Under the pieces are notes generated by a model, which had not been told where the DNA came from, made no database searches, and saw nothing but the letters and a program-made list of their open reading frames with translations. Shown piece after piece: positions 5,194 through 26,473 of a stretch of DNA of 64,000 bases (position 1 is its first letter; each line of letters opens with the position of its first letter). The DNA is taken from assembly GCA_963768305.1 (NCBI GenBank), contig CAVYHE010000009.1, positions 1 through 64,000 on the forward strand, given 5' to 3'. The stretch is from an uncultured bacterium. Lineage in GTDB: Bacteria; Margulisbacteria; WOR-1; CAVSGV01. Both the position numbers and the translations under genes were made by a program.

Positions 5194-6213
5194 TTATTGA
5201 TCTGTTCCAGTATATTCGCGAGGATCTTCAGCTTTTCGTCTTCCGGGACCGTATCCAATTTCTCTGCATAATGCTTCAATAGAGCTTATTTTTTCCGTGG
5301 CTTTCCTGATGGCGACTTTCAATTCCTGAACATTCTGATCTTTATTTTCTTTTAAAAGTTTATCATACGCCAGTTTATCGGCCTGCCTGTTCATTTCGTT
5401 ATTTTGTTCGATCTTATCCAGGACCGCCTGTGTGATATCGGAACTTAAAGCGGCAAGCTTAAGCAGATTTAAATTATCCACGAACTTTAGAGCGTTTGCA
5501 TAATCAAGTACAGAGGCATTTCCGGGCGGCAATATTTTATCTGCGATTGTCCGAGAAAGAGCCGCATTGTGGGCGTCGATCTTTGCCAACATATCCGCTC
5601 TGCCGCCGGCAATTTGGTGCAACTCGCTGTCGATCCTCGAAATCTGCGGCATCGCTTGTCTTATTTCATCGGAAGACATCTGCCCTACTATGTTCTTTTC
5701 CGCTGACATGGATTCGAGCGTTAAATCATCCATCTCGGATGAAACACCTATAACTTCTCCGACAGTCTCGGCGCCATCCAATAGATCAGCTACTGCCTCT
5801 AATTTTTCTCCGCAATCCGCCATTTGCCCGGCCCATGCTAATATAGCGTCAGCCTTAACGATCTTTCCCGCCATCTTTTGATCTAAGATCGAAATAATCC
5901 TTTGAACGTTCTGATCTGAATACCCCTTTTCTTGTAACTTTGCGATAACTTTATCTCTGTTTTGAAAATAGCTGACGGCGTGTTCTTCCATAGCGGTTGC
6001 ATGTTCGGTCAAAATATTCGCCTGATTTTTCAGATTTTCCGATTTTTCTCTTAACTTTTGGCTTTCAGCAGATATTAATACTTTATCTTGATTCTGAACA
6101 ATGATCGGAGCCATTTCAGAGCCTGAATTGCCCGTGCCTTTCTTGTTCGCAACACCATTCATTATTGGAGTTGGACTTATTAATTTTTTATCTACTCTGA
6201 CTGACCCTTCCAT
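5194..6213 (-). CDS. Hypothetical alpha-helical/coiled-coil protein (339 aa)
   Basis: Long ORF, GAGGGG SD, 14 nt downstream of the 888-aa gene. Confidence 0.8.
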   Translation of the reverse strand: MEGSVRVDKKLISPTPIMNGVANKKGTGNSGSEMAPIIVQNQDKVLISAESQKLREKSENLKNQANILTEHATAMEEHAVSYFQNRDKVIAKLQEKGYSDQNVQRIISILDQKMAGKIVKADAILAWAGQMADCGEKLEAVADLLDGAETVGEVIGVSSEMDDLTLESMSAEKNIVGQMSSDEIRQAMPQISRIDSELHQIAGGRADMLAKIDAHNAALSRTIADKILPPGNASVLDYANALKFVDNLNLLKLAALSSDITQAVLDKIEQNNEMNRQADKLAYDKLLKENKDQNVQELKVAIRKATEKISSIEALCREIGYGPGRRKAEDPREYTGTDQ

Positions 6214-6227
6214 TTTATTCCCCTCTT

Positions 6228-8894
6228 TTACGCGCTCTCCTTAACCGCTTTTTGGTTGTTCTGGTGCCGGTAAACGACTTCTTCGATGTCCTCGCCCACC
6301 CCGTGGCTGAAACCGGATTCCTCTTTCAGCCGCTGGATCAATTTGACCATCATCGGGACCTTTTTCTCAAGGGACGGATGCTCATGGTTCTCAAGTATCG
6401 AGACCGCCGATTTCAGTTCAATAATAGCGTGATCATGCATCATCCTGTTCGCGTCATCCCTTAAATAATCAAGCTCTTCCTTGCTTATAGCCATGTCAAG
6501 GTTGCCAAGGTTGGAGACAAGGCCTTTTATCTTGTTCTTGAGCAGGCCGTAAGCGGGGCCGGAAAGCTCGTAATATGTGGACCTTTCGATGAACGATCCT
6601 TTCAGCATCTCCAGCGTCCTGTACCTCGCCAGAGCTTTCGCTTCTTTCTCTATCTTCATGAAATCTTCGGTCTCGAGCCCCAATTTAATGAGCCCGTTCT
6701 TCAGCTTCCTTATCTTCGGCGAGAAGCTGAACACCGCGAACGGATCTCCTGTTAACGCCCTCTTCATCATTTCAGCCCTTAGCTGGTTTATCAAAAGCTC
6801 CCTTTCCTCGTCCTTTGTCATTTCGTATCCGTGCTTATCGTTCACTCCGCCTGCGCTGACCTCCCCTATTGATATCTTGTTGGGATCCTGCGCCATTTCC
6901 GCATTCTGGGCCTCAAGTACGAACAACCCGAGATCGAATTTTTTCTGCTCCCATGTTTTCAGGAAAGCGTTAAAGTTAAAGCCGACCTTATGACCAAGAT
7001 CGACAAGTTTTTTGACTTCCATCCTGTTGTCTTTTCCGGAAAGATGGCGTTCCATAAGTCGGGATTCAACGGCTTCTTTCACGAAATCCTTTATCTCCTG
7101 ATGCGATACCCTGGCGATGTTCGCCATCTGTTCTTTTACGCTTTCCGGATCGGCGCTTATGCCTGTGAGCTGCTGCGCTTTCACAGCTTCTTCATAAGCG
7201 TTGTTCAGCTGCTTGGATGTTACGACGAACTGGAAACTCTTCTTTGACGAGAACATGTGATTTGTGAAGCTGTCCTGAATGTCCGATACGTACCCGGACT
7301 TTAAGGAACCCTTCACAGCTTTTTCTATGCTTCTGATATCTTGATCGGAAACACCCTTCTTTTTCAGATTATCCTTTGCGTCTTCCAGCTTTTCCCTTGC
7401 TTCCGGCGACGCCGCGGCGGCAAATTGCGCGAAAACGCTGGAAAACTGCTGGACCGCTTCACGCATCTCTTTAGCATCGTTCAAATTCCTTACGCTTGAT
7501 CGATCTTCCCCCTCATGATGCTTTTCCCCTTTTCTTTCAACGCGCCCTGTCTTATTATTGTCCTCATGGAGCTGTTCATCCCTGGCTTCATCCAGCTTCC
7601 TTCTTATCTCCGGCGAAGCGGCGATTATATATTGGGCGGAATGCTGGGTATTCTGCGGAGATGTTTCTTTGGCGGAAAAGGAACTGTAAGTGTTTTCAGA
7701 CTTTTCATTTCCCGCTTTTTTCTCGCGAAGATCGGACTGCAAAGCTTTTTCTTGCTGTTTTTCCTCTCCAACCTTGATCGTAAAAACTTCTTTCTGCGGA
7801 ATAACATCTTTTGTTTTAACGACATCCTCTTTAATGGTCTGTTCCAGCATGTTAAGTCTTTCGTCTTGATCATCGGATCTGGCGGCAACTTGGTCCTCCG
7901 ACTTTGAAACCAATTGAAAAGCATTTTTGGACGCGATCACCTGCTGGATAAGATCATCGTGCACTTTTGACGCATCCAGGTTCCCGTTTTGCTCATCAGA
8001 TCTGGCGGCGATCTGTTCATCCTGCTTCGCAAAAATTTGACCCTCTGACTTTGCGACCATTTGAGATGTGATCATCTGCTGGACAAGATCATCATGCACT
8101 TTTGACGCATTCTGGTTCCCGCTTTGTTCATTCTGCTTTGCAAAGACCTGATCCTCCGACTTTGCCACCATTTGGAAAGCGTCCTTGGGGGTAATGACCT
8201 GCCTGATGAAATTTTCCTGCATCTTTGAAAGGAAATCGGTCTTTAATGACCTCTCCACTGATTTATCCAAGGTCTCTATGTCCTTTTCGGAGAACCCTTT
8301 TTGCTTTAAAGTCTCTTGGGCATCCCTCAGCTTGTCTTTTGCTTCCGGATCCGAAAGAAGGGTCTCCTCCGCGTAGGCCGCGGAATATTTCTGGACCGCT
8401 TCTTTGACATCGGAAGCCTTCAAAAGCATCCTTATGTCCGACTGCCTTGACTGATCGCCCGATCTCTCTTCCTGCTGCTTCTCCTGCCTGTTCTGCATTT
8501 TTCTTACCGCATCCTTGGTGAGGTCGAGCTTGTCCCCTTTAAGCAGGGATTGACTGATCTGTTCGAGTTCGTCAGTGATCTTGCTGTTAAGCGATTTTTT
8601 ATCCATTTTCGGAGTGAGGTCTATGCCCAGGGCCGCGAGATCCTTCGCCAAATTGGAGAGAACTTTTATTCCCGGATCTTTTTGAAGTTTTGCCTGATAT
8701 GCTTTTTCTCCCCTGAGGGTTTCCACGCGTTTCGCGTCGGAGATGATGTTCTCATAAGTGTTCATGTCCATGTTCTGCTGCATTTTTTTGAGGTCCGCGA
8801 TCTTCTGCAGCTCGCGCATGACGGCGGCATTATCGGTTTCTTTCGCCTGATCCGCCCTTTTTGTTTGATTTATTTGATCCGTGCTTAATACCAT
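6228..8894 (-). CDS. Hypothetical 888-aa helical protein with internal repeats
   Basis: Long ORF, AGGTG SD, preceded by the conserved promoter motif; duplicated ~85-aa block. Confidence 0.85.
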   Translation of the reverse strand: MVLSTDQINQTKRADQAKETDNAAVMRELQKIADLKKMQQNMDMNTYENIISDAKRVETLRGEKAYQAKLQKDPGIKVLSNLAKDLAALGIDLTPKMDKKSLNSKITDELEQISQSLLKGDKLDLTKDAVRKMQNRQEKQQEERSGDQSRQSDIRMLLKASDVKEAVQKYSAAYAEETLLSDPEAKDKLRDAQETLKQKGFSEKDIETLDKSVERSLKTDFLSKMQENFIRQVITPKDAFQMVAKSEDQVFAKQNEQSGNQNASKVHDDLVQQMITSQMVAKSEGQIFAKQDEQIAARSDEQNGNLDASKVHDDLIQQVIASKNAFQLVSKSEDQVAARSDDQDERLNMLEQTIKEDVVKTKDVIPQKEVFTIKVGEEKQQEKALQSDLREKKAGNEKSENTYSSFSAKETSPQNTQHSAQYIIAASPEIRRKLDEARDEQLHEDNNKTGRVERKGEKHHEGEDRSSVRNLNDAKEMREAVQQFSSVFAQFAAAASPEAREKLEDAKDNLKKKGVSDQDIRSIEKAVKGSLKSGYVSDIQDSFTNHMFSSKKSFQFVVTSKQLNNAYEEAVKAQQLTGISADPESVKEQMANIARVSHQEIKDFVKEAVESRLMERHLSGKDNRMEVKKLVDLGHKVGFNFNAFLKTWEQKKFDLGLFVLEAQNAEMAQDPNKISIGEVSAGGVNDKHGYEMTKDEERELLINQLRAEMMKRALTGDPFAVFSFSPKIRKLKNGLIKLGLETEDFMKIEKEAKALARYRTLEMLKGSFIERSTYYELSGPAYGLLKNKIKGLVSNLGNLDMAISKEELDYLRDDANRMMHDHAIIELKSAVSILENHEHPSLEKKVPMMVKLIQRLKEESGFSHGVGEDIEEVVYRHQNNQKAVKESA

Positions 8895-8941
8895 TTTTCA
8901 CCTTTCAAAGCGCGTTAACTTACACTCTCTCCCACCTATAT

Positions 8942-8969
8942 TATCGTGTTTTGGAGCCAAAAACTTGCA
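8942..8969 (-). promoter_or_regulatory. sigma28-like promoter, copy 1
   Basis: Minus strand TGCAAGTTT-N14-CGATA upstream of ATG 8894. Confidence 0.75.
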
Positions 8970-8991
8970 TAAAACCCTGTGGAAATGAGGT

Positions 8992-9386
8992 CTATCTATG
9001 GACAGATATTCTGGGAGTGTGGACCAATTTTTTCGCGGCTTCCTTTGCCTTTTCTCTGTTCGGAGAGGCTTTTTCAGCCATTTTATTGACATTCCTGCCG
9101 TACTTGTCGATGGTCCTTTGTGCTCTATTGATATAGGTCTGGATCTTTTCCAGCTTTATCGTGCTTTCCTTGTCCAGCTTGCCTTTCATGAAGAGCTCAT
9201 ATTCAAGGTTCAGCCTTTCGGAATTAAGGTCATCAAGGATCTTTTTGCGGCGTCCATTTTCATGGACTCAAAATTGAGCTCGGAAAACCTGTCATCTATC
9301 CCGAGCTTTTTGGCCTTTATGTGAAGCTGGCCTTTGATCTCTGTCAGGATCCTCTGCTGGGCTTTTTTCTGCTTTTTCGTGGCCAT
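8992..9386 (-). CDS. Hypothetical basic protein (~131 aa), frameshift in an A-run near 9243
   Basis: MATKKQKKAQQRILTEIKGQL.. joins ORF 8992-9189 on adding one A; extended -10 TGATATAAT just upstream. Confidence 0.65.
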
Positions 9387-9425: not shown

Positions 9426-9920
9426 TTATGAAGCGTATATTTCGTATTCAGCGTATGCTGTGGCAAGCCGTTCATAGCCCGCCTGGACCTTGCCCTTTGC
9501 CTGCTCGTAAGCTTTCTTCCTTATGGCTTCAAGTTCCGCGGGATCGGCGCCAAGAAGGCCCAGGAGGGAATTGCAGGTATTCACCTTGAACCCGTAGAAA
9601 GCTTCGGCAAGCATGTTATGGGCGTTATCGTAGCGGTCCTCCAGCGACTTTTCCAAGCGTTCCTTTAGAGACTCTACTGTCGGCTGGTATTTTTTCTTTG
9701 CTTTGGAAACCTCATCCTGCTCCGCCATGGCGGCGACATATTCGTCGATATTCGGGTTCGCCATGTCCGCGATCTTTTCGCCGAAAATATTGCCCTTTTC
9801 CTTTGATATGAAGTTCTCGTCATCGACTCTCTTGTTATTCGAAGCAACCTGCTTCACTACCGCGTACTGCTTTGAGGCAGTATTTGCGAGCCCGACATTT
9901 GTAGATAGATTTGCGGTCAT
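9426..9920 (-). CDS. Hypothetical protein (164 aa)
   Basis: ORF begins 1 nt after the stop of the 603-aa gene, with AAGGTG SD. Confidence 0.8.
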   Translation of the reverse strand: MTANLSTNVGLANTASKQYAVVKQVASNNKRVDDENFISKEKGNIFGEKIADMANPNIDEYVAAMAEQDEVSKAKKKYQPTVESLKERLEKSLEDRYDNAHNMLAEAFYGFKVNTCNSLLGLLGADPAELEAIRKKAYEQAKGKVQAGYERLATAYAEYEIYAS

Positions 9921-9921: not shown

Positions 9922-11733
9922 TTATATCACCTTATTCTCGTTTTTTGCATGTTTCTTGGCCTGAGCTTCCACAGCTTGCGTGGCCGGCGAGCTGCTTGAA
10001 CCGCTAGCCTTGGCAACATTATTCTTTTTGGAAGCGCCGGCCGCTATAGCCGCTGCGCTAACATTCCTTGCGGCAAAACCGGCAGCCATGGCGGCGCTCT
10101 GAGCATGTCTCACTACCGGAGCTGATATAACAGGATGACTTGCCCCAGGCGCGACAGCAGGCGATCTTTTTGCGGAAGATACCCTGCTCTTTGACGCGGA
10201 GCCTTTCACGCTTTTTGCCGCCGCGACCCTTGAAGAACTGGATTTTCTTTTAAGCAACGCGTTCATTCTCGCCTTTGCCTCGGCGCGATGTTTAGCTTCT
10301 ATCTTCATAAGGGCGAACTCCTCATCGATACGATCGTTCTTTTTGTCCTCGTAATCGGCTTCATCGGTCTTATATTTATTGTCCAAATAGCGATTAAACA
10401 TATCGCTTGTGAGCGACTTAACAGCGTCTTTATTCCCGATAGAGATCATTTCATAGTGGAAATAATCATACCAGTCGGTCCCAACTGTAAAATCGGGATT
10501 AAAGGCCTTGTAGTTATTCTCAGCCGTAACTAAAGCTGCCTGTATGGCTGATATCTGATCGGCTGTCAACGGGGGCTGTATGGAAAGCAGCAGGCTGCCG
10601 AACAAAGTTGGATCTCCGTTTGAATCTTCGTACGCTTGAACCACTTGGTCTTGCTGGTCCAAGTTTAATCCCGTGACAGTATGAAGCTGCGTATTGAGTT
10701 CTTGAAGGAAGGTCTTCTCAGCCGAACTGAAAGCCGTGGTTATGGCTGATATCTGATCACTTGTCAACGCCGGAACTATGGCATTCAGCGCGTCGCTGAA
10801 CGAACTTAAATCCCCATTTGATGCGGTGTATGCCTCCATTACTGAATTGAACTGTCCTTGAATCAATCCAATGGGACCCGAAGCCTGATCATTGGCTGCT
10901 TTCAGCAGCAATTGGAAAGCTCCGGGATGGCAGTTGACCGAAGTCCCGTTCACCTGGTCCCATCTTCGCATATCATCCGTCCATTCATTCTTAAGCGCAT
11001 TAGCCGCGGTTTGTTGATCGCCTGAAAGTCCCCCGTTATCAATGTAGTTTTGAACCTTTTCCATGAAAGCGCTGTTTGTGCTGAATTTGGACAAAGCATC
11101 CATGAACTGGCCATCCAGGCTGAATAACAAGCTTATCAGTCCCATATTATGCGGATCTATCGTGTTATTATTGGCCAGGAATGTGTTGATATTGCCTATA
11201 ACGTCGGCATCATTGCTAAGATCCTCCGCTTTCCCGAATATGCTCTGATAAGCGCCGAACACCCTTTCCTTGGAATCGAGCATCGAGCACATGAGATCGA
11301 ACGCCTGTTCATCCGAGAGACTATACAACTCCCCCTTATTTATGATCGTGTCGTAGCTCTCGCTGCCGCCGATATTCTTAATGTCGTCCCAGTTAAAGTT
11401 ATTATTGATGTCATCCACGACAGAAGCGTCTTCCGCGTGAATGTTCTCTCCCTGAACTCCTGTTATCAGGTCCCATACCGAGGCCTCCGGAGAAAAATCA
11501 AGGTTCTTATATAGTTGCCCTTCGACCGTACTGAGTGACTTATTATAGCTATCAGAGAAGAATTTCATCTCCGTTGCGAGGGCGTTCGCCACCTGAAGGA
11601 ATGACTGGTATTGAGCCGAATTTTCTCCCGGATTCTGGCATATTTGATTTGGATAGCTTATGTGTATGGGCTGTTGAGGTTGTTTCAGCCCCATCATGTC
11701 TACCCCGGAAAAATCATACGAGAAATAACCCAT
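9922..11733 (-). CDS. Hypothetical 603-aa protein, acidic body with basic Ala/Ser/Lys tail
   Basis: Long ORF, AAGGAG SD; internal ~45-aa duplication. Confidence 0.85.
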   Translation of the reverse strand: MGYFSYDFSGVDMMGLKQPQQPIHISYPNQICQNPGENSAQYQSFLQVANALATEMKFFSDSYNKSLSTVEGQLYKNLDFSPEASVWDLITGVQGENIHAEDASVVDDINNNFNWDDIKNIGGSESYDTIINKGELYSLSDEQAFDLMCSMLDSKERVFGAYQSIFGKAEDLSNDADVIGNINTFLANNNTIDPHNMGLISLLFSLDGQFMDALSKFSTNSAFMEKVQNYIDNGGLSGDQQTAANALKNEWTDDMRRWDQVNGTSVNCHPGAFQLLLKAANDQASGPIGLIQGQFNSVMEAYTASNGDLSSFSDALNAIVPALTSDQISAITTAFSSAEKTFLQELNTQLHTVTGLNLDQQDQVVQAYEDSNGDPTLFGSLLLSIQPPLTADQISAIQAALVTAENNYKAFNPDFTVGTDWYDYFHYEMISIGNKDAVKSLTSDMFNRYLDNKYKTDEADYEDKKNDRIDEEFALMKIEAKHRAEAKARMNALLKRKSSSSRVAAAKSVKGSASKSRVSSAKRSPAVAPGASHPVISAPVVRHAQSAAMAAGFAARNVSAAAIAAGASKKNNVAKASGSSSSPATQAVEAQAKKHAKNENKVI

Positions 11734-11755: not shown

Positions 11756-12061
11756 TCAGCTGGACGAACTGCCTATGGATTTTTCGAGCGCGAACATCTG
11801 CTGGAATACCGAAAGTATAGTTGTCGTCTGGTTCGAGAGCTGGTCCATCTTATTGCTTATCGCAAGTTGAAGCGTAACAGTGTCCGTTTTCGATATTTTT
11901 CTGCCGTCAACCGTGATCGAGGTCAGGTTCGGATCTGACATTTGGTCCAATATATCATTGATCTCGTTCTGATTCTCTTTCATTGCCGCCTTCACGTCAT
12001 AATGGACATTATTCAACTGTTCCGTTATCTGCGCCGGCGCTACTACTCCTCCGTATACCAT
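11756..12061 (-). CDS. Small helical protein (101 aa), needle/rod-subunit-like C-terminus
   Basis: AAGGAGG SD before ATG 12061 (MVYGGVVAP..); C-term LQLAISNKMDQLSNQTTTILSVFQQMFALEKSI. Confidence 0.75.
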   Translation of the reverse strand: MVYGGVVAPAQITEQLNNVHYDVKAAMKENQNEINDILDQMSDPNLTSITVDGRKISKTDTVTLQLAISNKMDQLSNQTTTILSVFQQMFALEKSIGSSSS

Positions 12062-12119
12062 GATAAATTCCTCCTTTTTTACCTTGTTCTTGACTATTTG
12101 CTTTCCCCTACACATATAT

Positions 12120-12147
12120 ATTCGTATGAAGTGGTGTGAAACTTGCA
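12120..12147 (-). promoter_or_regulatory. sigma28-like promoter, copy 2
   Basis: Minus strand TGCAAGTTT-N14-CGAAT. Confidence 0.7.
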
Positions 12148-12161
12148 TGTAGTTTAGCTCC

Positions 12162-12321: not shown

Positions 12322-12720
12322 TTATCCCTGGCTCAGGATCCTGGACGCTGTCTTGGCAATATTATTTGCCGTTGACAACAGCTGAGATGCAACCTGGACC
12401 TTGGTCGAGATCTTTTGCATAAGATCGTCTATTACCATGGCTCCGGATGCTTGTGAAATATCTACGGTCGTTCCTTGCGCAAACCCATACTCTTCGGGAA
12501 CTTGCGATAACAACATTGTGTGGTTGGGGTTGTTCGCGTCTGGTCGTCCCCCCACATCATAGTAGTTGCCCCCCGTTTTATCTAATTGATCCCCGTCTCC
12601 TAACGTGCCATCCAAGCAGTCAATAGTTATGTCATCAATGTCATCGCACGCATTTGTTGCACTTTGAATAGCATTGCTCAACATATTATCGCTCACATTA
12701 GCTCCTATGTTAATACTCAT
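12322..12720 (-). CDS. Small monocistronic protein (132 aa) with flagellar-axial/T3SS-needle-like C-terminal helix
   Basis: GGGGGTG SD before ATG 12720 (MSINIGANVS..); own promoter and terminator; C-term DLMQKISTKVQVASQLLSTANNIAKTASRILSQG. Confidence 0.8.
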   Translation of the reverse strand: MSINIGANVSDNMLSNAIQSATNACDDIDDITIDCLDGTLGDGDQLDKTGGNYYDVGGRPDANNPNHTMLLSQVPEEYGFAQGTTVDISQASGAMVIDDLMQKISTKVQVASQLLSTANNIAKTASRILSQG

Positions 12721-12764
12721 ATTTTTCACCCCCTTTTGTTTAAAATTTTGTCTTCCACTGTATT

Positions 12765-12792
12765 TATCGTAACTACTTGCCCAAAACTTGCA
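12765..12792 (-). promoter_or_regulatory. sigma28-like promoter, copy 3
   Basis: Minus strand TGCAAGTTT-N14-CGATA. Confidence 0.75.
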
Positions 12793-12798
12793 TGCATT

Positions 12799-13098
12799 TT
12801 AACCGTTTGCTTTGCCCTGCTTCTCCATTATCTTCGTAATCTGGGCCAGTATGGCCTGCGCTTCTTCCAGGTCCGTATTGAATTCGCGCTTTTTCTCAAT
12901 CTCAAGCTTGTCCCTGTCAAAATTCGACCCCGCGGACCTGTTATTCCCGGCCACGACCATTACCCCGTCCATGCTTCGCCTAACCAGCTCGAATACGCTG
13001 TTGAAATTGATGGTTGGCGAATTATTGGCTTTTCCTTCGCTTTTTTGAGGCTGAGTCGCGGGATTTATTTGGCGGTTCACTGATGCTACTGCTGTCAT
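12799..13098 (-). CDS. Hypothetical protein (99 aa)
   Basis: AGGAG SD before ATG 13098 (MTAVASVNRQINPATQPQKS..); C-terminal coiled helix. Confidence 0.7.
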   Translation of the reverse strand: MTAVASVNRQINPATQPQKSEGKANNSPTINFNSVFELVRRSMDGVMVVAGNNRSAGSNFDRDKLEIEKKREFNTDLEEAQAILAQITKIMEKQGKANG

Positions 13099-13111: not shown

Positions 13112-13297
13112 TTAACACATTTGTGCAACGCGTCTAGAGATGCCAAGTAGCGCCTCGTCCGCGGCGATCTTGTCAACGACTTGCGGCTGGGACGGTTTAT
13201 CGCCCGGCTTCGTACTGCCTTTCGTATTGAGGTTGGAAACCCCGGATTTCGAATTATTTATTGTTGAATTTGCTGTTGCTGTTTGATCTCCTGCCAT
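13112..13297 (-). CDS. Small hypothetical protein (61 aa)
   Basis: AAGGAG SD and promoter copy 4 directly upstream; S/T/N-rich N-terminus. Confidence 0.65.
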   Translation of the reverse strand: MAGDQTATANSTINNSKSGVSNLNTKGSTKPGDKPSQPQVVDKIAADEALLGISRRVAQMC

Positions 13298-13322
13298 TTA
13301 AGCACGCTCCTTACACTATTAT

Positions 13323-13350
13323 TATCGGGGGGAAACGGGGAAAACTTGCA
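13323..13350 (-). promoter_or_regulatory. sigma28-like promoter, copy 4
   Basis: Minus strand TGCAAGTTT-N14-CGATA. Confidence 0.75.
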
Positions 13351-13491
13351 TGGAAAAAAAGGGGGATGTCGTTCGTTATTCGGTCCCGATACCCGTTTCG
13401 TCGTTGGGGCCCGTAATTCGGGGGGTATTAGCTTAGAGGTTTTTCACTCTGAAAATCGATATGGGCTTCGAGAACCGGACTCAATTTATCA

Positions 13492-13887
13492 TCATTTTAT
13501 GCTCTGATGATTAACTTTATATTTTGTCCAGGATCTTGAAAGCTTATATAATTGGCGACCACATTTATCATATATATCTATCAGCTCATCGCACTTTATC
13601 CTATAAAGGTCTCTGCATTGTGACAATGAAACCACAGTCTCATTGCATTCAGCCATTGCATCATCCAGATATTTTTGAAAACCCATCTTCTGGTGCCTTT
13701 TGGCATATCCTTCGGCAATTAACCTGGGAATAGCCTTACTGCTTCTGCTGATCTGATCCTTCAGGTCATATTTTTCTGACGCAGGCAGCCCAGGAAGAAC
13801 TTCATTGAAAATTTTGATTACAGCTGAATATGAATTCTGGAAAACATTCAGATCTCGATAGCTGATCACCAGTTTCTTTTCTTCCAT
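13492..13887 (-). CDS. Four-helix-bundle protein (23S rRNA intervening-sequence protein family)
   Basis: SYRDLNVFQ..LPASEKYDLKDQISRSSKAIPRLIAEGYAKR family signature; AAGGAG SD. Confidence 0.9.
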   Translation of the reverse strand: MEEKKLVISYRDLNVFQNSYSAVIKIFNEVLPGLPASEKYDLKDQISRSSKAIPRLIAEGYAKRHQKMGFQKYLDDAMAECNETVVSLSQCRDLYRIKCDELIDIYDKCGRQLYKLSRSWTKYKVNHQSIK

Positions 13888-19307: not shown

Positions 19308-19321
19308 TCTTTTATTCTCAT

Positions 19322-22300
19322 CTATAAGGACCTCTTCTCCCTGGTATCAACCCAGAACCTGGACCACCAGGATTCTCCTTCAATGGCGGCTTCATCAACC
19401 TGATACTTTTTGTTTATCGCACTCTCTTCTTTTGCCTTTTCCGCGTCATTAAGCGACTGGACGGCCTGCATCATGTCCGACAATAATCCCTGAATAAATT
19501 CGTTCCCCACGATATACCCCATCATTTTTTCCACTCTTTTCGCGAATAATTTATAAATATTCATTCCCTTGTATCCGTCGCTTTCGCCGCCGTCAAGCTC
19601 CTGCTCGACCAGTCCCCTCAGGTCCCTCCACGCTTCATAAAGGATCGCATACGCTATCAGCGTCCCTTCCAGATGCTTCGCTTTGTTCATTATGCTGAAC
19701 GGATTGGCCGGATTAAATGCGGGGTTGTTCTTATTCACCGAATAAGTGTAATAAGTGTTCCCGTCCTTAGCTACATACGGCGTCTTTATCAAATAGCTGG
19801 CGCCGTATTGCGAAGAAATATAATCAATTTGATCTGTCGCCAAATAATCCGCGGCAGTTACGCCGGGATTCTCTGCAATAACAGTTTGCGCGTCCGCTAT
19901 CGCCTGCTTAATGCCCTTGACCAAGTTCGCGTTTCCCTCGGTCCCATCTGCCCAAGGATGGATAGGGTAATTTACTTCATAATAATAATAATCGCCAAAA
20001 AATTCACCGTAGAGAGTGGGGGTGCCAGACATGATCGCAGTCCCCGTCTTTGAATTCCATCCATTGGAGATCCTGCAAAAGGAAACTATATAAGGAACAT
20101 TTGCACTATGATTATCTCCATCAGGTAATATCACTACATTATTTATAAATTGGCCTGTGGGGCTGACAAGAGTTCCGATCCATCCGTTATTATTGACAAT
20201 ATCATTATATAATCCGACGCCATAGTCTCCGTTGCTCAGTTTAAAAACAGCATACGGATATAAAGTTTCATTGTAAGGTTGACCATTCCATGTATTACTT
20301 TTAATTATTATGGCCCCATTACCAGTAAACATGCCCGTGTTACAGGTCGGATCATAAGCATACGTTAGCTGCGGGCATTCATTACTAAGCTGGTAATCAT
20401 CGGCATTCCTGCAATAAGATGACAGTAAAAGTTGTTGATTGGAAACTATGGTATTTTCACATAACATCAATTTCCCCTTTAGTTCATTCAGCAAAGTTGC
20501 ACTGTTAGAGCTCGGAAAGCCGAACTCATGTTGATACTGGATAAGCAGCGTATATTCATTTGCTAAAGCGGTTTGCAGGGCAATCAGGTAAGGTTCCGCT
20601 AGTTGTAAACCTGTATTGATATTCCAATATTTGACCTCTTGACCGGGATCAGCGAACTTCACTACATCCTTCGCAGCATAATAAGCATTTATCTGTTGTG
20701 CGGTTAACACTGTGTGATTGCTTACCAAAGCCCCTGTGGCATAATCATAAACTCCGGAAACTCCTATGCCCGCATCAGTATAGTTGGTTAATGCGCCTGC
20801 ATGATCAGCCATATAATTGTCATAAGCGAGCTGCGCCTGCTCCACAAGCGCTTCGGCGTTCAATATCTCCATCGCAGAGTCTATCTCTACCACCGTCAGG
20901 TCAAGTGTCTTCATTTCCGATTCCGCCCCGCTCATCATGCTGTACAAGGCTACGACAAAGTTAGTTGTAGTTCCCATGCTGCTCGTATACTCTGAATAAT
21001 ATTTGCCCGCTTGCGCCAGCTGGTCATTAGCGCTCTTCAGGTCGTTCAGAAGCGAATATTGCGTAGCGAGCGTGCCCGCGTCACTCACGCAGGTCTGCAG
21101 ATATGCTTTATGTTCGATCGCGTCGAAGTAATTTGTATGCCTTTCTATATAGTCATTATAGCCATCATTGACGGTATAGCCGTACGATATACGATATCCC
21201 ATGGCGGACAAGGTTTGGATCTCCTGTAGGGTAAAACCATCGTGGGGCGTAAAAGTCTTTGACATGCCATACGCATCAGATGCTTGATATATCGGATTTG
21301 TCATCTTACTTTTTATTATTGGGTCATTGCCGAAATAGGTCATTTGCACAGTAAACGCGACCGAATATCCTTTAGCGATAAGAAAATCTATATCCGCCGC
21401 GGAATATTGTGTGTTGAGAGCCCCGTCACCGTTGCTTTTTTTGCTAGTTCCATCTATAACAGTAACCCAGTTCACAGGCACAAGCTGGCCTGTTTTAGGG
21501 TCTGTTTGATAAATTGTTACGCCGCTAATGGGCCAACCGCCGGTATAATTATTTTGTTCAGTGCCGCCCCCGCAAAAATATGCTGATAAAACACCAGTAT
21601 TAGTATTATTACTAACGTATGGGACTGTGGTATATTCGCCGTCATTCTGTACGCCTCCAAACGAGGTCACACCATTGACATAATTGCTATAGTCTGTTTG
21701 AGCCTTGGTAAAAGCACTTGTTGCAAGAGCGAGTGTGGTGTTGCCGCTGAGATTTAATGAGCCGAAAACCACAGAGCTGCCGTTTTCGCCCGTCACATTG
21801 CGGGTGAAATTCGTTGCGAAAATAGTGTTGTTCGTCTTGTCACTCTTTTGGGCATTTGCTATCCAGGCGGTAACCGCTGTCTGGATATCCTTTTTCACAA
21901 TGGGGATCTCAGTGGCGGCCAACGCGGCAGCACCCGAGATATTGCCGCTATTAAGCAAACCGACGACCCCGTTGGTGCCGTATATCTGGTAATAATCAGA
22001 GGTGCCGGTGCTCGCCAGCCCGAGCGCGGTGAAGATCGCAAGCTGAAGGAAGGATTTCGCGGAAGTAAGGAAATTGTCCGCGGCATCCGCGTAATCCTGA
22101 TAAGTGTAAGTAACTCCGGGAGCAACGCAATAATTATGCGCTTGCAGATATGTTATCGCTTCCTGGTAGCAGGTTACGCGGGTGTTATAAACGCCGCCGG
22201 ACGCACTTTTAACATTTTGACCAAGATAAGAATAATTGGGGTCCGCATATAAGACCGTGTGGCCCGCGGCTATCTGGGTCTGTATCGTTTGCGCGCTTTC

Positions 22301-22900
22301 AGTATAAGCAACGCCGTCAACCGTTACCTTTATGTCGGCCGTTCCATACTGGTCCACGTAAGTATCCATGGAATTAGCAACATCCAGGGTCGTTATGCAG
22401 TCGCTCACATTCGGACCGAGCTGAGACCAGTCAAAACTGGGATTGAAACTAAAAATATCCAGATTTGAGACCTGAGTTAATATGTTCTGCTTGGCGATCG
22501 CCCCGTTGACGGCCGTTTGCAGCGCTGTAAGCACATTGCTTATATTTGCTTCCGTCGTGGGATCCAAAACCGTGGCGGCTTGCAGCACGCTCATAAGCCC
22601 GCCGGCGCCGAACACATCGTTATAATAATTATGGTGCGGATCATTCCAGGAAACATAATAATCGGTCAGCCCAAGCTGGGTCCATATAGCAAGCTGAAGG
22701 TTCGTTGCCGCTGCAGTCGCGTTATTATCCGCAGCTGTCAGGTAATCCTCATAAGCGGGAGTGCCGCTTAACGCGAGTTTTTTGGTCGCGACAGTGTAGT
22801 TCCACAAGCGAGAGCTATAAGTATGATCACTATCTGAAGTTGAAAGAGGTTTACCATCCTTATATGTGTATGTGACCGTGGGTCCGCTTGTTGCCATCAT
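19322..22900 (-). CDS. Middle part (1192 aa) of the giant protein, Tyr/Thr/Asn/Gly-rich
   Basis: Long ORF whose repeat unit (YKDG..STSDSDH..S.R) matches the upstream 445-aa ORF; no SD. Confidence 0.85.
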   Translation of the reverse strand: MMATSGPTVTYTYKDGKPLSTSDSDHTYSSRLWNYTVATKKLALSGTPAYEDYLTAADNNATAAATNLQLAIWTQLGLTDYYVSWNDPHHNYYNDVFGAGGLMSVLQAATVLDPTTEANISNVLTALQTAVNGAIAKQNILTQVSNLDIFSFNPSFDWSQLGPNVSDCITTLDVANSMDTYVDQYGTADIKVTVDGVAYTESAQTIQTQIAAGHTVLYADPNYSYLGQNVKSASGGVYNTRVTCYQEAITYLQAHNYCVAPGVTYTYQDYADAADNFLTSAKSFLQLAIFTALGLASTGTSDYYQIYGTNGVVGLLNSGNISGAAALAATEIPIVKKDIQTAVTAWIANAQKSDKTNNTIFATNFTRNVTGENGSSVVFGSLNLSGNTTLALATSAFTKAQTDYSNYVNGVTSFGGVQNDGEYTTVPYVSNNTNTGVLSAYFCGGGTEQNNYTGGWPISGVTIYQTDPKTGQLVPVNWVTVIDGTSKKSNGDGALNTQYSAADIDFLIAKGYSVAFTVQMTYFGNDPIIKSKMTNPIYQASDAYGMSKTFTPHDGFTLQEIQTLSAMGYRISYGYTVNDGYNDYIERHTNYFDAIEHKAYLQTCVSDAGTLATQYSLLNDLKSANDQLAQAGKYYSEYTSSMGTTTNFVVALYSMMSGAESEMKTLDLTVVEIDSAMEILNAEALVEQAQLAYDNYMADHAGALTNYTDAGIGVSGVYDYATGALVSNHTVLTAQQINAYYAAKDVVKFADPGQEVKYWNINTGLQLAEPYLIALQTALANEYTLLIQYQHEFGFPSSNSATLLNELKGKLMLCENTIVSNQQLLLSSYCRNADDYQLSNECPQLTYAYDPTCNTGMFTGNGAIIIKSNTWNGQPYNETLYPYAVFKLSNGDYGVGLYNDIVNNNGWIGTLVSPTGQFINNVVILPDGDNHSANVPYIVSFCRISNGWNSKTGTAIMSGTPTLYGEFFGDYYYYEVNYPIHPWADGTEGNANLVKGIKQAIADAQTVIAENPGVTAADYLATDQIDYISSQYGASYLIKTPYVAKDGNTYYTYSVNKNNPAFNPANPFSIMNKAKHLEGTLIAYAILYEAWRDLRGLVEQELDGGESDGYKGMNIYKLFAKRVEKMMGYIVGNEFIQGLLSDMMQAVQSLNDAEKAKEESAINKKYQVDEAAIEGESWWSRFWVDTREKRSL

Positions 22901-22926
22901 TTTTTGAAGATCTTTCGCGCTTATGG

Positions 22927-24264
22927 TCAGATCCTTGTAATTGTAGTACGTTCCCCCCCGGCGACAGGTGTCCCCGTTGTGACCGTTATCTCTATGTCCG
23001 CCTCGTCAAATTCCGTTATGCTCGTGATGAAGCCGTTCGCGGCATTCAACGCGGTAATATCAGCCGGAACATCTCCTCCCAGTGAAACCGCCAGTTCATA
23101 TTCCGACTCGCGGGTACTGAAAATATGATCACTATCTGAGGTTGTGATAGGGTCCCCATCCTCATATTTGACCGTGCAGCCTCCGTCTATCCTGGCCTGT
23201 ATCCATTGCGCGCTTTCGGTAACATCCGATGTACCTGTGTAGTTGGTACCGGTATTCTTATCCGTGCCGGAAACCGTCACATCTATGTCAGCCAGGTCAT
23301 AGTCCCCTAAAATAGTGATCAGGTCATTAAGTTCCAGATCAGTAGTAATATTTTGGATGCATTGATACGTCCCCTCAAGCGCATCCGCGTAAGTGGAATA
23401 ATTAAGGATCTCGGGCAATCCTATATTGGTCGTGGGGACCGTGATCAGCGCAGTGGAGAATTTAGAATAATCGTAATTTTTATCAAAAAGATCCACGCCC
23501 TCGGAGTTATAGCTGAAAAGCTCGATCTTCGAGCTGCCTATGGAGTTTGATCTTGTGCCTGCGGTCGGATCAAAATATTCAACAGAACCGTCATTCCCCG
23601 TGAACTGGACTATAACATGGCCAACCAGGGCATTTGGATCCACAACGACAACGCAGGAGATCTTTTTATTTGCTTCGTCCAGCGTCAACCCTTTATCCAT
23701 CAGCGCCGCTATGGAAAGGCTGGCCGCCAGGTTCGCCAGGTCTTCGCAGTCGCCGCCGCCGTCCTGTATCGTTTGTGAAACCAGATTCCAGTGGTCAGTG
23801 CCGGATGGATCGGCTATATACGAAAAATGCGTGTGAACATAGTTGTTAATGGCGGAAACGATCTGTTCATCGGTCATGCCGCTCGTGATGATCCCTTCCG
23901 CTTTCAGCTGGGCAAGGAGCTGCTTTATGCAGGATGCTGAAGGATCGATATACTGCTCCGCGCCTTCAACTTTATTTATAGAGTCCATATCGTCAGGGTC
24001 TGAAACTATGTTATTGGACTGAACATCGCTCTGGATATAATTCGAGGATTGATCCTGCTCGACCGCGGATCCGGTGGCCACCTGCGAAGTGGAAACGCCG
24101 TTCGATACCGCGACATTGTCGATCCCGATTGAAGCGGATGGATCAAATACAGACGGGACATCAGAAGCTATATAGGAGGGGGAGACAGAAGCGCCGCCGG
24201 CGATATCGTTAGTATCATCGACTTTTTGAGTATTGGTTAATTGCTGTATGTTTATGTCTGTCAT
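22927..24264 (-). CDS. N-terminal part (445 aa) of the giant protein, with a transglutaminase-like cysteine peptidase domain
   Basis: INNYVH..FSYIADPSGTDHW..QTIQDGGGDCEDLA..GHVIV..YFDPT (Cys-His-Asp); SD and promoter copy 5. Confidence 0.85.
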   Translation of the reverse strand: MTDINIQQLTNTQKVDDTNDIAGGASVSPSYIASDVPSVFDPSASIGIDNVAVSNGVSTSQVATGSAVEQDQSSNYIQSDVQSNNIVSDPDDMDSINKVEGAEQYIDPSASCIKQLLAQLKAEGIITSGMTDEQIVSAINNYVHTHFSYIADPSGTDHWNLVSQTIQDGGGDCEDLANLAASLSIAALMDKGLTLDEANKKISCVVVVDPNALVGHVIVQFTGNDGSVEYFDPTAGTRSNSIGSSKIELFSYNSEGVDLFDKNYDYSKFSTALITVPTTNIGLPEILNYSTYADALEGTYQCIQNITTDLELNDLITILGDYDLADIDVTVSGTDKNTGTNYTGTSDVTESAQWIQARIDGGCTVKYEDGDPITTSDSDHIFSTRESEYELAVSLGGDVPADITALNAANGFITSITEFDEADIEITVTTGTPVAGGERTTITRI

Positions 24265-24288
24265 TTTTGCTTCCCTTTACACTATATA

Positions 24289-24316
24289 TATCGGGAGAAT
24301 AGGGGTAAAACTTGCA
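24289..24316 (-). promoter_or_regulatory. sigma28-like promoter, copy 5
   Basis: Minus strand TGCAAGTTT-N14-CGATA upstream of ATG 24264. Confidence 0.75.
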
Positions 24317-24381
24317 TGGAAAATAAGAGAAATTGGGCTTAAAAAAGGCCTGAAAAACGGGGAAAAGGGCGTGAGGCGGGA

Positions 24382-25797
24382 CTATTTGGTATCAACAGGC
24401 TTAGGTTGCAGGCGCGAGCTTGCCGCAACTTCTTTCGCGGCGTCTTTCTCGGCTTTAACCTTATCCACTTTTTCAACTTCTGTGGCGACTATCTTGGGAT
24501 CGCCTCTGAGCCATTTGATATGTGCCTTTAAGGAGCCTTCCGGGCCGTAAACAGGAACGTTGTTCCACCTGCCAGGTTGCATGCCATAGTCATCCACGAT
24601 GGTCGAGAGGAACGCCTTCATGACATCCTTGTCCTTGATATTCACTTTATAGAGATCCGATTCCCGCCCGCCCTGCTCCTCCAGCAGAGAAGCCAGCCCG
24701 ACCTCCCCGCTCAAAGTGGCAAGACCTGCCATGCACATGATATTTTTCGCATTGTCATTGTTTTTTCCCTTAATAGTCGCCGAATTATCTGGGTTCTCTA
24801 ATATCCTTAGTTGAGGATTATTTAATTCGAAATATTGCAAATATTGGACCAACATGGTTTTTTCATAGCCGTGAAGATAATTGTACGGGTCTTTCGTGCC
24901 GCCAGCCGTCTGGGCTTTTCCATCATGATTTCTTTCTAAAATTATTTCACTGACAAATTTCGCTAGGTCCTTATAATCTTCCTCTATATTCTTCAAAAGA
25001 GCCTTTTTATCCTCATCGCTCAAGGTCGCATCTGCCTTTACGTTCTTGATCGCCAGATCGCGCATGGATATTGCTACCTTCGCCGCCATGATGCTTTTCG
25101 GCACAAGGAAGAATTTTTTGGCGGCAAAAAGCTGGAGCATTTTTCCGGCCTTATTTGAGGATACTGTGCCTGCAAAAACAAGAACCTCGTTCTTTGTTTT
25201 GTCCACGAATGTTGCAAGCGAAATGTCGTCCGTTTCAGGATCGTATCCCCCGCTCTGGTCCCCGTATAACACGTCAAAGGCATTGTCAGTGACATCCCTT
25301 ACGGAAGTTCCGCTGAACATTTTCTCGAAGAAACCCATATCTTTATGGATAGCGTTTATCAGGGACTTAACACCTGCGGGGTTCATCCTGATCTGCGACA
25401 GGATATCAAAGTCAGGGGAGTTTTTAAAAGAAAATCTAAGATCCTTATGTTTCCCTTGCGCATTCTCTTCAGCGTCTATCTGAATATCTATCCGATTTGC
25501 AAGCCATTGTCTGATGTGGCCTGTATCGAATTCCGGCAGATCCAACATATCGAAAATAACCTGCTCTTCCGTTTTAAGGGTCATAATGGACGATGCGACA
25601 ACATCTTTATTGAAACCATTGTCCAGCATTTTCCGGATCGGTTTATCGTATGCTTTCATGAGGGAATCGGCCATACTGTCGCCGTATTTTATCGCAAGGT
25701 CGGTCCTTATCAATGCTATCTTGTCATTGGAAGTAAGCTTTGACGGCAAGACATATGAAGCATCTGTTTTTTTATCAACTGTTTGTAGAGGAACCAT
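24382..25797 (-). CDS. Hypothetical protein (471 aa)
   Basis: Long ORF with AAGGA SD; third gene of an operon. Confidence 0.8.
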   Translation of the reverse strand: MVPLQTVDKKTDASYVLPSKLTSNDKIALIRTDLAIKYGDSMADSLMKAYDKPIRKMLDNGFNKDVVASSIMTLKTEEQVIFDMLDLPEFDTGHIRQWLANRIDIQIDAEENAQGKHKDLRFSFKNSPDFDILSQIRMNPAGVKSLINAIHKDMGFFEKMFSGTSVRDVTDNAFDVLYGDQSGGYDPETDDISLATFVDKTKNEVLVFAGTVSSNKAGKMLQLFAAKKFFLVPKSIMAAKVAISMRDLAIKNVKADATLSDEDKKALLKNIEEDYKDLAKFVSEIILERNHDGKAQTAGGTKDPYNYLHGYEKTMLVQYLQYFELNNPQLRILENPDNSATIKGKNNDNAKNIMCMAGLATLSGEVGLASLLEEQGGRESDLYKVNIKDKDVMKAFLSTIVDDYGMQPGRWNNVPVYGPEGSLKAHIKWLRGDPKIVATEVEKVDKVKAEKDAAKEVAASSRLQPKPVDTK

Positions 25798-25803: not shown

Positions 25804-26046
25804 CTATCCTTTTTTTAAGAACTTATTCTTCTCGCTCAGCTTCTTTTCCAGTTGTTCCGCTTTTTCCGCGAATTTTGCTTTTAATCCGGTTAATTCCTGT
25901 TCAAGCTCTTTTTTCCTGTTCTGGTATTTTTTTAATTCGGCGTAATATCTGGCCAGAGAATAAAAATAGTATCCGGCAATGACTATAAAAAGAAGAATAG
26001 CCCACCAGGCATGCTCTATGAATTCAATTATTATTTGTGTTGTCAT
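25804..26046 (-). CDS. Small membrane protein (one TM plus coiled coil, 80 aa)
   Basis: AWWAILLFIVIAGYYFYSL followed by a charged helix; ATGA overlap with upstream gene. Confidence 0.7.
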   Translation of the reverse strand: MTTQIIIEFIEHAWWAILLFIVIAGYYFYSLARYYAELKKYQNRKKELEQELTGLKAKFAEKAEQLEKKLSEKNKFLKKG

Positions 26047-26387
26047 ATTTTTTGGTCAACTTTACCGGGCACCGGACTTTTGTGGCCTTCTGTCAGACCA
26101 TACGCCTGCTCTCTGGACCCTTTCGATGGATCCTTTAAATACTCAAAAAGATCAATTGCCCCTTTTAGCGGATCGGCTTTTTCTGGATCATTGGCAGGGG
26201 CAGGATTAAGTCCGGCATTATAATCAACTGGCCCTTGCTTTGTTGCCATTGAACCGATCCATTCCGCGTCTGCAACAGCTTGTTTTACATTTTCCGCTTG
26301 CTTTTGCTTGGCTTCGTTTTTACCTTGCATATATTTTTGAACCGATGTTGGGTCTACGAAAGCTGATTGCGTCGGCACTATGCTCAC
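26043..26387 (-). CDS. Hypothetical protein (114 aa)
   Basis: AAGGAGG SD before GTG start; promoter copy 6 upstream. Confidence 0.75.
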   Translation of the reverse strand: MSIVPTQSAFVDPTSVQKYMQGKNEAKQKQAENVKQAVADAEWIGSMATKQGPVDYNAGLNPAPANDPEKADPLKGAIDLFEYLKDPSKGSREQAYGLTEGHKSPVPGKVDQKI

Positions 26388-26445
26388 GATAAATTCCTCC
26401 TTATATCAGAATTAAGGGCGAACACACCTTTTCTCACATCTATAA

Positions 26446-26473
26446 TATCGGGACAACTGGGCTAAAACTTGCA
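26446..26473 (-). promoter_or_regulatory. sigma28-like promoter, copy 6
   Basis: Minus strand TGCAAGTTT-N14-CGATA. Confidence 0.75.

Follow-up and report, generated by a model that had tools for sequence, protein, structure and literature searches.

The first 64 kb of contig C9 of an uncultured member of the Margulisbacteria (genome G000; 1.53 Mb in 16 contigs), referred to here as the window, carry between positions 5194 and 26387 a block of 11-12 minus-strand genes organized in six transcription units, each with one sigma-28-like promoter. We show that this is a real, co-regulated and conserved gene block, and that it is physically and regulatorily linked to a flagellar-type apparatus that lacks flagellin and stator and is present in this genome and across the phylum. 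The explanation we favour, with modest confidence, is that the block represents this lineage's version of the gene set of a type III secretion apparatus that derives from the flagellum, does not rotate and occurs throughout the Margulisbacteria. That the block products would be exported via this apparatus, forming its distal structure and its cargo, is a proposition with about equal chances of being right or wrong, based on polar N-termini, co-regulation and synteny with the hook gene.

A conserved gene block under one promoter type

The block is flanked by genes for PEPCK and a histidine phosphatase (2787-5282) on one side and for an NTP-transferase and RpiB (26503-28007) on the other, with only minus-strand open reading frames (ORFs) in between. 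The first-pass annotation of this stretch, made from the letters alone, had described about 13 unassigned genes here. The ORFs proved to be real, with three of them being pieces of one gene. Two gave Pfam matches over the cut-off among the 14 ORFs scanned: 23S_rRNA_IVP (13492-13887) and Transglut_core (22927-24264). The true starts of three small genes lie downstream of the starts set by the ORF finder.

The entire block is syntenic, at the same chromosomal site and between the same housekeeping genes, in five relatives belonging to other genera (G002-G006). One of them, G004 (one contig, 95% complete), is of the same family as G000; a further genome used throughout, G012 (one contig, 98% complete), is of the same class. 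This synteny bears on the possibility that the island is a mobile element, a prophage remnant or a defence island, which would be in keeping with orphan genes lying between housekeeping genes and with the slightly lower G+C content of parts of the block (0.44-0.49 versus about 0.50). Against it, no PHROG matched any of the 13 ORFs searched below E 1e-4, no integrase or transposase ORF was seen, and core members of the block occur phylum-wide. Since the position is fixed and the core genes are found across the phylum, we give this alternative practically no credence and regard it as excluded. The genes of the block, in the direction of transcription, are as follows.

26043-26387 (-), 114-residue protein: N-terminus polar, without a match to any family; relatives have a similarly sized gene there, unalignable by BLAST
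25804-26046 (-), 80-residue protein: one N-terminal membrane segment and a charged tail; 36-49% identity across G002-G006
24382-25797 (-), 471-residue protein: orthologs with 24-29% identity in G002, G004, G005 and G006; no match in Pfam, NCBIfam or ESM Atlas
14199-24264 (-), giant gene of about 3,345 codons: three ORFs, 22927-24264, 19322-22900 and 14199-19307
13492-13887 (-), 131-residue 23S rRNA-intervening-sequence protein: PF05635, E 8e-19, 68.3 bits versus a gathering score of 33.8
13112-13297 (-), 61-codon upstream ORF: right behind promoter 3, overlapping the next gene; a 66-codon ORF lies at the G004 site (three-frame reading)
12799-13098 (-), 99-residue basic protein: N-terminal half polar and disordered; 57% identity to G004
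12322-12720 (-), 132-residue acidic protein, small family S1: S1 alignment of 14 sequences, good only in the C-terminal helix region
11756-12061 (-), 101-residue protein, small family S2: aligned as a family; AlphaFold model with a mean predicted local distance difference test (pLDDT) score of 69.8
9922-11733 (-), 603-residue protein: internal duplication and a basic low-complexity tail; its position is that of a variable gene of 177-903 residues elsewhere
9426-9920 (-), 164-residue protein: 77% identity to G004; family in 16 of 121 genomes of the phylum
about 8990-9386, end approximate (-), small basic gene: frameshifted in G000, intact in G004 (131 residues) and G012 (127 residues)
6228-8894 (-), 888-residue all-helical protein: N-terminal half a duplication; the C-terminal 450 residues define a family
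5194-6213 (-), 339-residue charged helical protein: 14-nucleotide gap to the 888-residue gene, with which it is co-transcribed; no detectable relative, G004 included

The 23S_rRNA_IVP gene belongs to a four-helix bundle family, has no promoter of the shared type and lies elsewhere in G004; it is an unrelated passenger in the block. Behind its own block, G004 has two additional unassigned genes of 402-403 residues.

The six transcription units are preceded by a bipartite motif with identical spacing, placed 4-77 nucleotides upstream of the ORFs, in five strict intergenic copies and one variant. Its likeness to sigma-28 promoters was judged against what we take to be the sigma-28 consensus. The sites are listed here with their weight matrix scores.

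26445-26475 (-), sigma-28-like promoter 1: score 39.8; drives the genes for the 114-, 80- and 471-residue proteins; kept in G004, G002 and G006
24288-24318 (-), sigma-28-like promoter 2: score 38.6; drives the giant gene; kept in G002-G005
13322-13352 (-), sigma-28-like promoter 3: score 35.6
12764-12794 (-), sigma-28-like promoter 4: score 36.2
12119-12149 (-), sigma-28-like promoter 5: score 22.6; variant downstream box, just upstream of the true start of the 101-residue gene
8941-8971 (-), sigma-28-like promoter 6: score 31.2; kept in G004 and G003

Promoter 5 sits in a false N-terminal extension of the 101-residue gene introduced by the ORF finder, and the translation of this extension matches the promoter region in G004. 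A weight matrix was built from the five strict sites, with a threshold set by leave-one-out, and both strands of the 1.53-Mb genome were scanned. Six of the 21 matches genome-wide fell inside the 21-kb block, compared to a mean of 0.18 and a maximum of 1 in 50 Markov resamples of the 64-kb window. The motif was also conserved at orthologous places in G002-G006. The earlier proposal of six units sharing one promoter motif thus held.

Outside the block, matrix matches were found upstream of two operons of a flagellar-type apparatus: the FliK-hook-FliM...FlhA operon (C4:100495) and the FliK-FlhB-like-FlgF-FlgG operon (C9:103482). Two sigma factor genes lie within the flagellar clusters on these same contigs. 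For both, the best model was TIGR02479 (FliA_WhiG), with scores of 145.7 and 75.1 bits, below the model cut-off of 189.6. The flagellar sigma-28 (FliA/SigD) regulon of Escherichia coli, Salmonella and Bacillus is similar in its bipartite sigma-28-type promoter and in having FliA/WhiG-like sigma genes that adjoin flagellar genes. The present regulon differs from it in that both sigma factors fall short of the NCBIfam family cut-off, and in that none of the canonical members (flagellin, FlgK, FlgL, FliD, FliS, FlgM, MotAB) was found here. Moreover, since the operons for hook and rod have this promoter as well, a class hierarchy of the kind known from the flagellar sigma-28 regulon is not evident, and for the same reason the assignment of the block to a "late" gene class was not borne out.

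Two further observations concern this promoter type elsewhere in the genome. On C8 (183673-197687), large orphan genes (811, 276, 129, 862, 89 and 2382 residues) form another cluster behind three sigma-28-like matrix matches, which may be a further cargo island of this regulon. Near-identical promoter copies with paralogous small genes and similar flanks occur at C10:79167-80369 and C12:16537-17742, representing either a duplication or assembly redundancy.

A flagellar-type apparatus without propeller or motor parts

The block had been attributed to a type III or flagellar export system, and the genes of such a system are indeed present elsewhere in G000. Export and C-ring genes comprise FliM, FliN, FliO, FliP, FliR, FlhB, FlhA (FHIPEP, E 6e-164; in two ORFs owing to a frameshift), FliH, FliI and FliJ. 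Envelope and axial genes comprise FliE, FlgB/C, FlgF, FlgG, FlgA, FlgH (L ring), FlgI (P ring) and FliF (MS ring). They are arranged in two clusters, one on C4 (FliK, hook-like FlgE, FliM, FliN, FliO, FliP, FliR, FlhB, FlhA and a sigma factor) and one on C9 (FliK, FlhB-C-like, FlgF, FlgG, FlgA, FlgH, FlgI, a sigma factor, FlgC, FliE, FliF, FliG, FliH, FliI and FliJ). The FlgE-like hook protein is short (287 residues), and FliG, of 177 residues, has the N and M domains only. This single apparatus has two FliK-like proteins and an extra FlhB-C-like protein (C9:101823-103411; C4:99717-100574), which may point to two structures of measured length or to two switches of substrate.

When set against the bacterial flagellum, the gate, the ATPase complex, the MS and C rings, the rod, the L and P rings and the hook are present here, whereas the stator, the C-terminal domain of FliG and flagellin were not found. 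Flagellin_N and Flagellin_C gave no matches in G000, and Flagellin_N none in G004 and G012. FliG_C, MotA_ExbB, FliD_C, FliS and FlgM were likewise without a match in G000, G004 and G012, while all five, and flagellin as well, were detected in G042 and G053, two genomes of the phylum with ordinary flagellar genes that served as positive controls. No axial protein of FlgK size was detected: axial C-terminal motifs were confined to ORFs of 76-296 residues in G000, G004 and G012, and occurred in FlgK- and FlgE-size ORFs in the controls. In terms of gene content, the phylum-wide system is thus a flagellar-type apparatus lacking propeller and motor parts.

These absences weigh on the idea that the organism swims with a working flagellum, and that the block encodes its hook-associated proteins, cap and filament in extremely diverged form. 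In other classes of the phylum the block genes adjoin the hook gene, a place often taken by flgK and flgL, which would fit this idea. So would the S1 profile, which in a search of Protein Data Bank (PDB) sequences gave weak matches to flagellins in their C-terminal helices (E 0.25 to 7), and the presence inside the block of a GT2-tetratricopeptide repeat (TPR) glycosyltransferase, a gene type with a link to flagellin modification, in the same-class relatives G012 (locus L105, 5443-6495) and G022 (locus L106, 7768-8859). However, neither a MotA/ExbB-family protein nor a FliG C-terminal domain was found in G000 and two complete relatives, while both are present in G042 and G053. Where flagellin does occur in the phylum, the genome has, in addition to this system, another FlhA and FlgK, FlgL, FliD, FliS and FlgM of the ordinary kind. 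Profile-profile comparison with the ordinary proteins gave probabilities of 1.2% or less, in a test that is insensitive. An ordinary flagellum with diverged late genes is very improbable, because motor parts are missing from complete genomes.

Linkage of the block to the hook gene across the phylum

A survey of 121 Margulisbacteria genomes, 71 of them of high quality, detected FlhA (FHIPEP) in 113 and Flagellin_N in only 15, and 13 of these 15 had two FHIPEP copies. G042, for example, has an ordinary late flagellar cluster in addition (FlgM, FlgN, FlgK, FlgL, FliW, CsrA, flagellins, FlaG, FliD, FliS). The family defined by the C-terminal 450 residues of the 888-residue protein, with 55 database homologs, was present in 112 of the 121 genomes and in all 71 high-quality ones. 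The S2 profile found single small ORFs in 65 genomes, and in 50 of these a gene of the 888-residue family lay on the same contig, within about 8 kb.

Ten loci around this gene were examined in genomes from other families. They were picked for the 888-residue family and mostly also for a transglutaminase match, so that the presence of the giant gene in them reflects this choice. Seven of the loci are from other classes, and there the order begins with one to three S1 genes (84-109 residues), one S2 gene (94-135 residues) and a variable gene of 177-903 residues, and continues with a relative of the 164-residue protein (262-281 residues), a gene of 69-88 residues, the 888-residue-family gene (588-617 residues) and a gene of roughly 290 residues. 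The last of these lies directly behind the 888-residue-family gene in all seven. It aligns end to end with the hook-like protein of G000 (E 2e-13 to 2e-32), and the two examples tested contain FlgE/F/G domains. The block of G048 has the FlhB and FlhA genes about 6 kb upstream of it. The S1 proteins, of 84-132 residues overall, head the block in other genomes in one to three tandem copies, and the weak relatives of the 164-residue protein (238-281 residues; 9 representative clusters in the homolog search) occupy the same position in other classes. Thus, the distal part of the block (S1, S2, the variable protein, the 164-residue family, the small basic gene and the 888-residue family) keeps its order across the phylum. 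The gene order seen in G000 is conserved in related genomes, and in other classes part of the block stands beside the hook gene.

The giant transglutaminase-domain gene

The ORFs at 22927-24264 (445 residues), 19322-22900 (1192 residues) and 14199-19307 (1702 residues) are in three different frames, separated by 26 and 14 nucleotides. At both junctions the gap is spanned by an open downstream frame, and at the first of them the shift falls in a run of seven G. The corresponding protein is a single ORF of 2071-2620 residues in G004, G003 and G006, uninterrupted at both junction sites, and the database homologs carrying the transglutaminase domain are fused forms of 2112-2690 residues. In addition, a repeat is common to the end of the 445-residue piece and the start of the 1192-residue piece. 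Because the frames are open across the gaps, the relatives are fused and the repeat is shared, we consider the three ORFs to be one gene of about 3,345 codons with two frameshifts. Split genes are frequent in the G000 assembly (MutS in three ORFs, FlhA in two, and broken TldD/PmbA, DUF362 and HMGL genes).

The protein starts with a polar N-terminus, followed by a transglutaminase-like cysteine-protease domain and a variable, repeat-rich middle. Its C-terminal part consists of helix-motif-helix modules with hydrophobic segments and a long tail rich in Ala/Lys/Glu and Pro/Gln. The repeated hydrophobic hairpins claimed by the first-pass annotation are reduced to one clear two-helix hairpin (residues 184-232 of the 1702-residue piece) and one additional membrane-like segment (766-795), alongside four copies of a conserved motif with a related fifth copy at the end of the 1192-residue piece. 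Among 5.8 billion proteins the 1702-residue piece has 11 relatives, none of them informatively named. The protease domain itself (residues 100-260) matches Transglut_core (PF01841) with 26.7 bits versus a Pfam cut-off of 23, and its Cys173/His216/Asp232 triad is invariant in all seven sequences compared, which places it in PF01841.

The transglutaminase-like cysteine proteases of PF01841 include LapG, a periplasmic protease that releases an adhesin. The domain found here resembles them in its Pfam score and invariant Cys-His-Asp triad, and is unlike them in its setting: the surrounding protein has about 3,345 residues and no signal peptide, and repeat modules and membrane segments come after the domain. 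Chlamydial Inc proteins are type III substrates with paired hydrophobic helices. The hairpin of the giant protein, with two hydrophobic helices and a short loop, and the missing signal peptide recall them; there is no sequence relation, however, the size here is ten-fold larger, and the apparatus is flagellar in type.

Such a protein could also be a surface adhesin or toxin delivered by a type I, type V or other secretion system, with the small genes as its accessory factors and no relation to the flagellar-type machine. Many members of the phylum (67 of 121 genomes) encode a transglutaminase-like domain, in most cases as the opening part of an ORF of 2,000-7,700 residues, and the middle part of the giant protein is variable and repeat-rich, as in adhesins. 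Nevertheless, hydropathy showed no signal peptide, and Pfam recognised neither a beta-barrel at the C-terminus nor a known type I signal family. The giant gene has its own promoter, which is of the shared type, and a transglutaminase domain is encoded within 20 kb of an 888-residue-family gene in 17 further genomes. In five genomes, all of family f15, FlhA has a small transglutaminase-like ORF (about 385 residues) at a distance of 1.5-2 kb. Taking both sides together, we consider an unrelated adhesin or toxin improbable.

Properties of the block products and their possible export

The polar N-termini that were pointed out by the first-pass annotation withstood a statistical comparison. The share of S/T/N/Q in residues 2-21 was 0.34 in 11 island proteins, with start codons partly chosen by hand, versus 0.185 in 777 other ORFs, and none of 20,000 random draws of 11 reached 0.34. 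A hydropathy scan, carried out without a signal-peptide predictor, found the membrane anchor of the 80-residue protein and no other hydrophobic stretch at an N-terminus. Thirteen further regulon members, among them both FliK-like proteins, had a mean S/T/N/Q share of 0.30 and no hydrophobic leader. Late substrates of flagella are similar in lacking a signal peptide, in their polar disordered N-termini and in their co-regulation with the export apparatus.

Homology searches were uninformative about identity. NCBIfam matched none of 13 ORFs, and the Pfam scan of the island, read down to E up to 0.1, yielded only the two matches named above. An ESM Atlas search with the 888-residue protein returned no usable match. 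The AlphaFold model of its residues 440-888 (pLDDT 73.3) is all helical, and its best matches (Foldseek E 0.014 at a template modelling (TM) score of 0.13; VIA wide Z 8.1 over 60 residues) are to generic helices. In the S2 model, a disordered N-terminus is followed by a helix, a beta-hairpin and finally a long helix at the C-terminus. Its best Foldseek match was prefoldin at E 0.7 and its best VIA match had a Z of 7.3, while flagellar hook termini, FliD, ESAT-6-like and needle entries were all within the noise band (needle: Foldseek E 2 to 5, VIA Z below 8). Against PDB sequences the S2 profile reached globins at E 0.04, with no supporting match. Profile-profile comparison with the phylum's own FlgM, FlgN, FlgK, FlgL, flagellin, FlaG, FliD, FliS and hook proteins gave probabilities of 1.5% or less, a weak negative, because the control pair hook-FlgK reached a probability of only 5.6%. 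Three apparent resemblances were rejected. The match of the S1 profile to coronavirus spike heptad repeats (E 1e-4) was taken as a coiled-coil chance match, the flagellin-like look of the first residues of the 132-residue protein is absent from its G004 ortholog and was taken as chance, and the 99-residue protein was dismissed as a FlgM (hhalign probability 1.5%). The identities of filament, tip and translocon that had been given to these genes therefore found no backing, since no needle, tip, translocon or flagellin match emerged from family, profile or fold searches.

These properties have to be weighed against the notion that the sigma factor is a general alternative one, and that the island proteins stay unexported in the cytoplasm or membrane, as coiled-coil scaffolds, envelope or cytoskeletal parts and a membrane-anchored giant protease, the adjacency to the hook gene reflecting shared regulation only. 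This is the main rival to the secretion apparatus we propose, and one we consider unlikely, though with an appreciable chance of being right. In its favour, the proteins modelled (888-residue family, S2) are helical, charged and scaffold-like, the membrane segments of the 80-residue and giant proteins would also fit insertion into the inner membrane, and no known substrate family was matched. Mere sharing of a sigma factor accounts less well for the retention of the order from S2 to the 888-residue family in 50 of 65 genomes, for a hook gene abutting in all seven other-class loci, or for polar N-termini that extend over the regulon and are common to the FliK homologs. FliK and the C-terminal part of FlhB have a known role in switching between substrate classes, and two FliK-like proteins and an extra FlhB-C-like protein have been retained here. 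Finally, the canonical late substrates are all missing, and thus some substrates must be unrecognised.

Several findings weigh against the explanation we favour. The shared promoter type is not specific to the block, the 15 additional matrix matches in G000 being mostly before orphan genes, a point that equally suits a general sigma factor; co-regulation alone is therefore weak evidence for export. Co-occurrence of the 888-residue family with FlhA discriminates nothing, as both are near-universal. In G000 and its class the block is not adjacent to the hook gene, and in G000 the two are on different contigs. The transglutaminase giant gene was found in none of 42 genomes of most families of its own class (f4-f7, f8, f9-f13), and among type III substrates a protein of this length (3,345 residues), with strongly hydrophobic stretches, would be out of the ordinary. 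No island protein matched a type III substrate, needle, tip, translocator, chaperone or flagellar late protein in Pfam, NCBIfam, profile or profile-profile searches, and both structure models gave fold matches at noise level only. The genome is also rated just 86% complete, and its frameshifts are numerous.

With these points taken into account, we consider the block genes to be the best candidates for the products that the machine builds or exports, because they are switched on along with the genes of the machine and adjoin them in related genomes. A FliA-like sigma factor would transcribe the block along with the apparatus. The products, having no signal peptide and polar, uncharged, disordered N-termini, would enter the export gate and pass through the channel of rod and hook. 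For a distal axial structure, or alternatively for pairs of substrate and escort, the small helical proteins S1 and S2 would be the first choice, and the 888-residue and 164-residue families may be conserved accessory or distal parts. The giant protein, with its intact Cys-His-Asp transglutaminase-like protease domain and its membrane-inserting segments, could be a cargo or a surface-anchored effector. The interpretation of the first-pass annotation as a whole is thus partly supported: its core idea, substrates without known relatives that use a type III machine under sigma-28 control, is the best reading of the data, with secretion itself a matter of inference. Its suggestion of predation or contact with other cells is not supported by anything observed here.

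Relation to known secretion and flagellar systems

The machine was originally thought to be injectisome-like. Some features do recall the injectisome: a type III export gate without a propeller, tandem small helical proteins (84-135 residues) near axial genes, the small one followed by a slightly larger one as for needle and inner rod in injectisome operons, and a large protein with one or more hydrophobic hairpins, as in translocators. On the other hand, the envelope parts are flagellar (FlgH, FlgI, the FlgB/C/F/G rod and the FlgE-like hook), the cluster has no secretin or SctD/SctJ rings, and no needle, tip or translocator family was matched. In size and gene order S1 and S2 would suit a needle subunit (SctF) and an inner rod protein (SctI), with needle entries reached at noise level. 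The two secretins of G000 are located in type IV pilus and type II clusters. The apparatus is thus a flagellar basal body with L and P rings, and not an injectisome.

A closer parallel is found in Buchnera, an aphid symbiont that has kept the genes for basal body and hook in the absence of flagellin and motor genes, and for which use as a protein exporter has been proposed. Both have retained the basal body and hook without flagellin or motor genes. There, however, this is a matter of genome decay in one symbiont lineage, whereas here it is phylum-wide (FlhA in 113 and flagellin in 15 of 121 genomes), and a conserved block of new genes with a dedicated promoter type is involved.

It is tempting to speculate that we are dealing with a second, independent conversion of a flagellum into a non-rotating secretion or attachment organelle, phylum-wide and parallel to the injectisome, in which the basal body, rod, rings and short hook would be flagellar, and all parts beyond the hook (S1/S2, the 888- and 164-residue families and the giant cargo) would derive from families without known relatives. 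We advance this tentatively, the chances being rather against it.

No flagellar-type apparatus is described for this phylum in the titles, abstracts and main texts of the literature searched, PMC8382752 among them. The main text of the principal comparative genomics paper of the phylum (PMC6349859) makes no mention of flagella, pili, secretion or motility, the text covered of a preprint on the Trichoplax symbiont (10.1101/568287) does not mention flagella, and that of a 2026 preprint on the evolution of flagellar genes (PMC13277936) does not mention the phylum. The present analysis contributes an inventory of the apparatus, a survey of the phylum and the link between the block and the hook gene.

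Other features of the window

A 396-residue ORF (28037-29227) fuses PdxJ to an S-layer-homology (SLH) domain; the PdxJ ORFs of relatives at this place have 707-797 residues. Many short or broken ORFs occupy positions 34000-43500, where either pseudogenes abound or the assembly of the window is at its poorest. They include HMGL/homocitrate-synthase-like fragments (35872-36968), a split DUF362 ferredoxin gene (38634-39552), a truncated phosphate acetyltransferase gene (40805-41467) and a split TldD/PmbA gene (41410-42445). A glycogen cluster (44044-57688) encodes a starch synthase, a fused nucleotidyltransferase-phosphoglucomutase, a GH57 branching enzyme, a DUF4912 protein, a CBM48 protein, a GalT-like protein, amylase/glucanotransferase pieces and a GH57 protein. 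The MutS gene (58891-61436) consists of three successive ORFs (domains I-II, III and V), pointing either to assembly frameshifts or to decay of mismatch repair.

Implications for the Margulisbacteria

The phylum concerned is the sister of the cyanobacteria and, according to the parts of the literature covered, includes symbionts attached to or inside other cells. In this phylum, conserved and co-regulated genes that have so far defied assignment stand beside the hook gene. If the explanation proposed here is true, the flagellar basal body that this phylum keeps without motor or filament would represent a second case, beside the textbook injectisome, of a flagellum turned into a protein-delivery machine, and would bear on how type III systems change function; its candidate distal parts and cargo are now named by their coordinates. 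The explanation would also provide a function for a large share of the orphan sigma-28 regulon of the Margulisbacteria.

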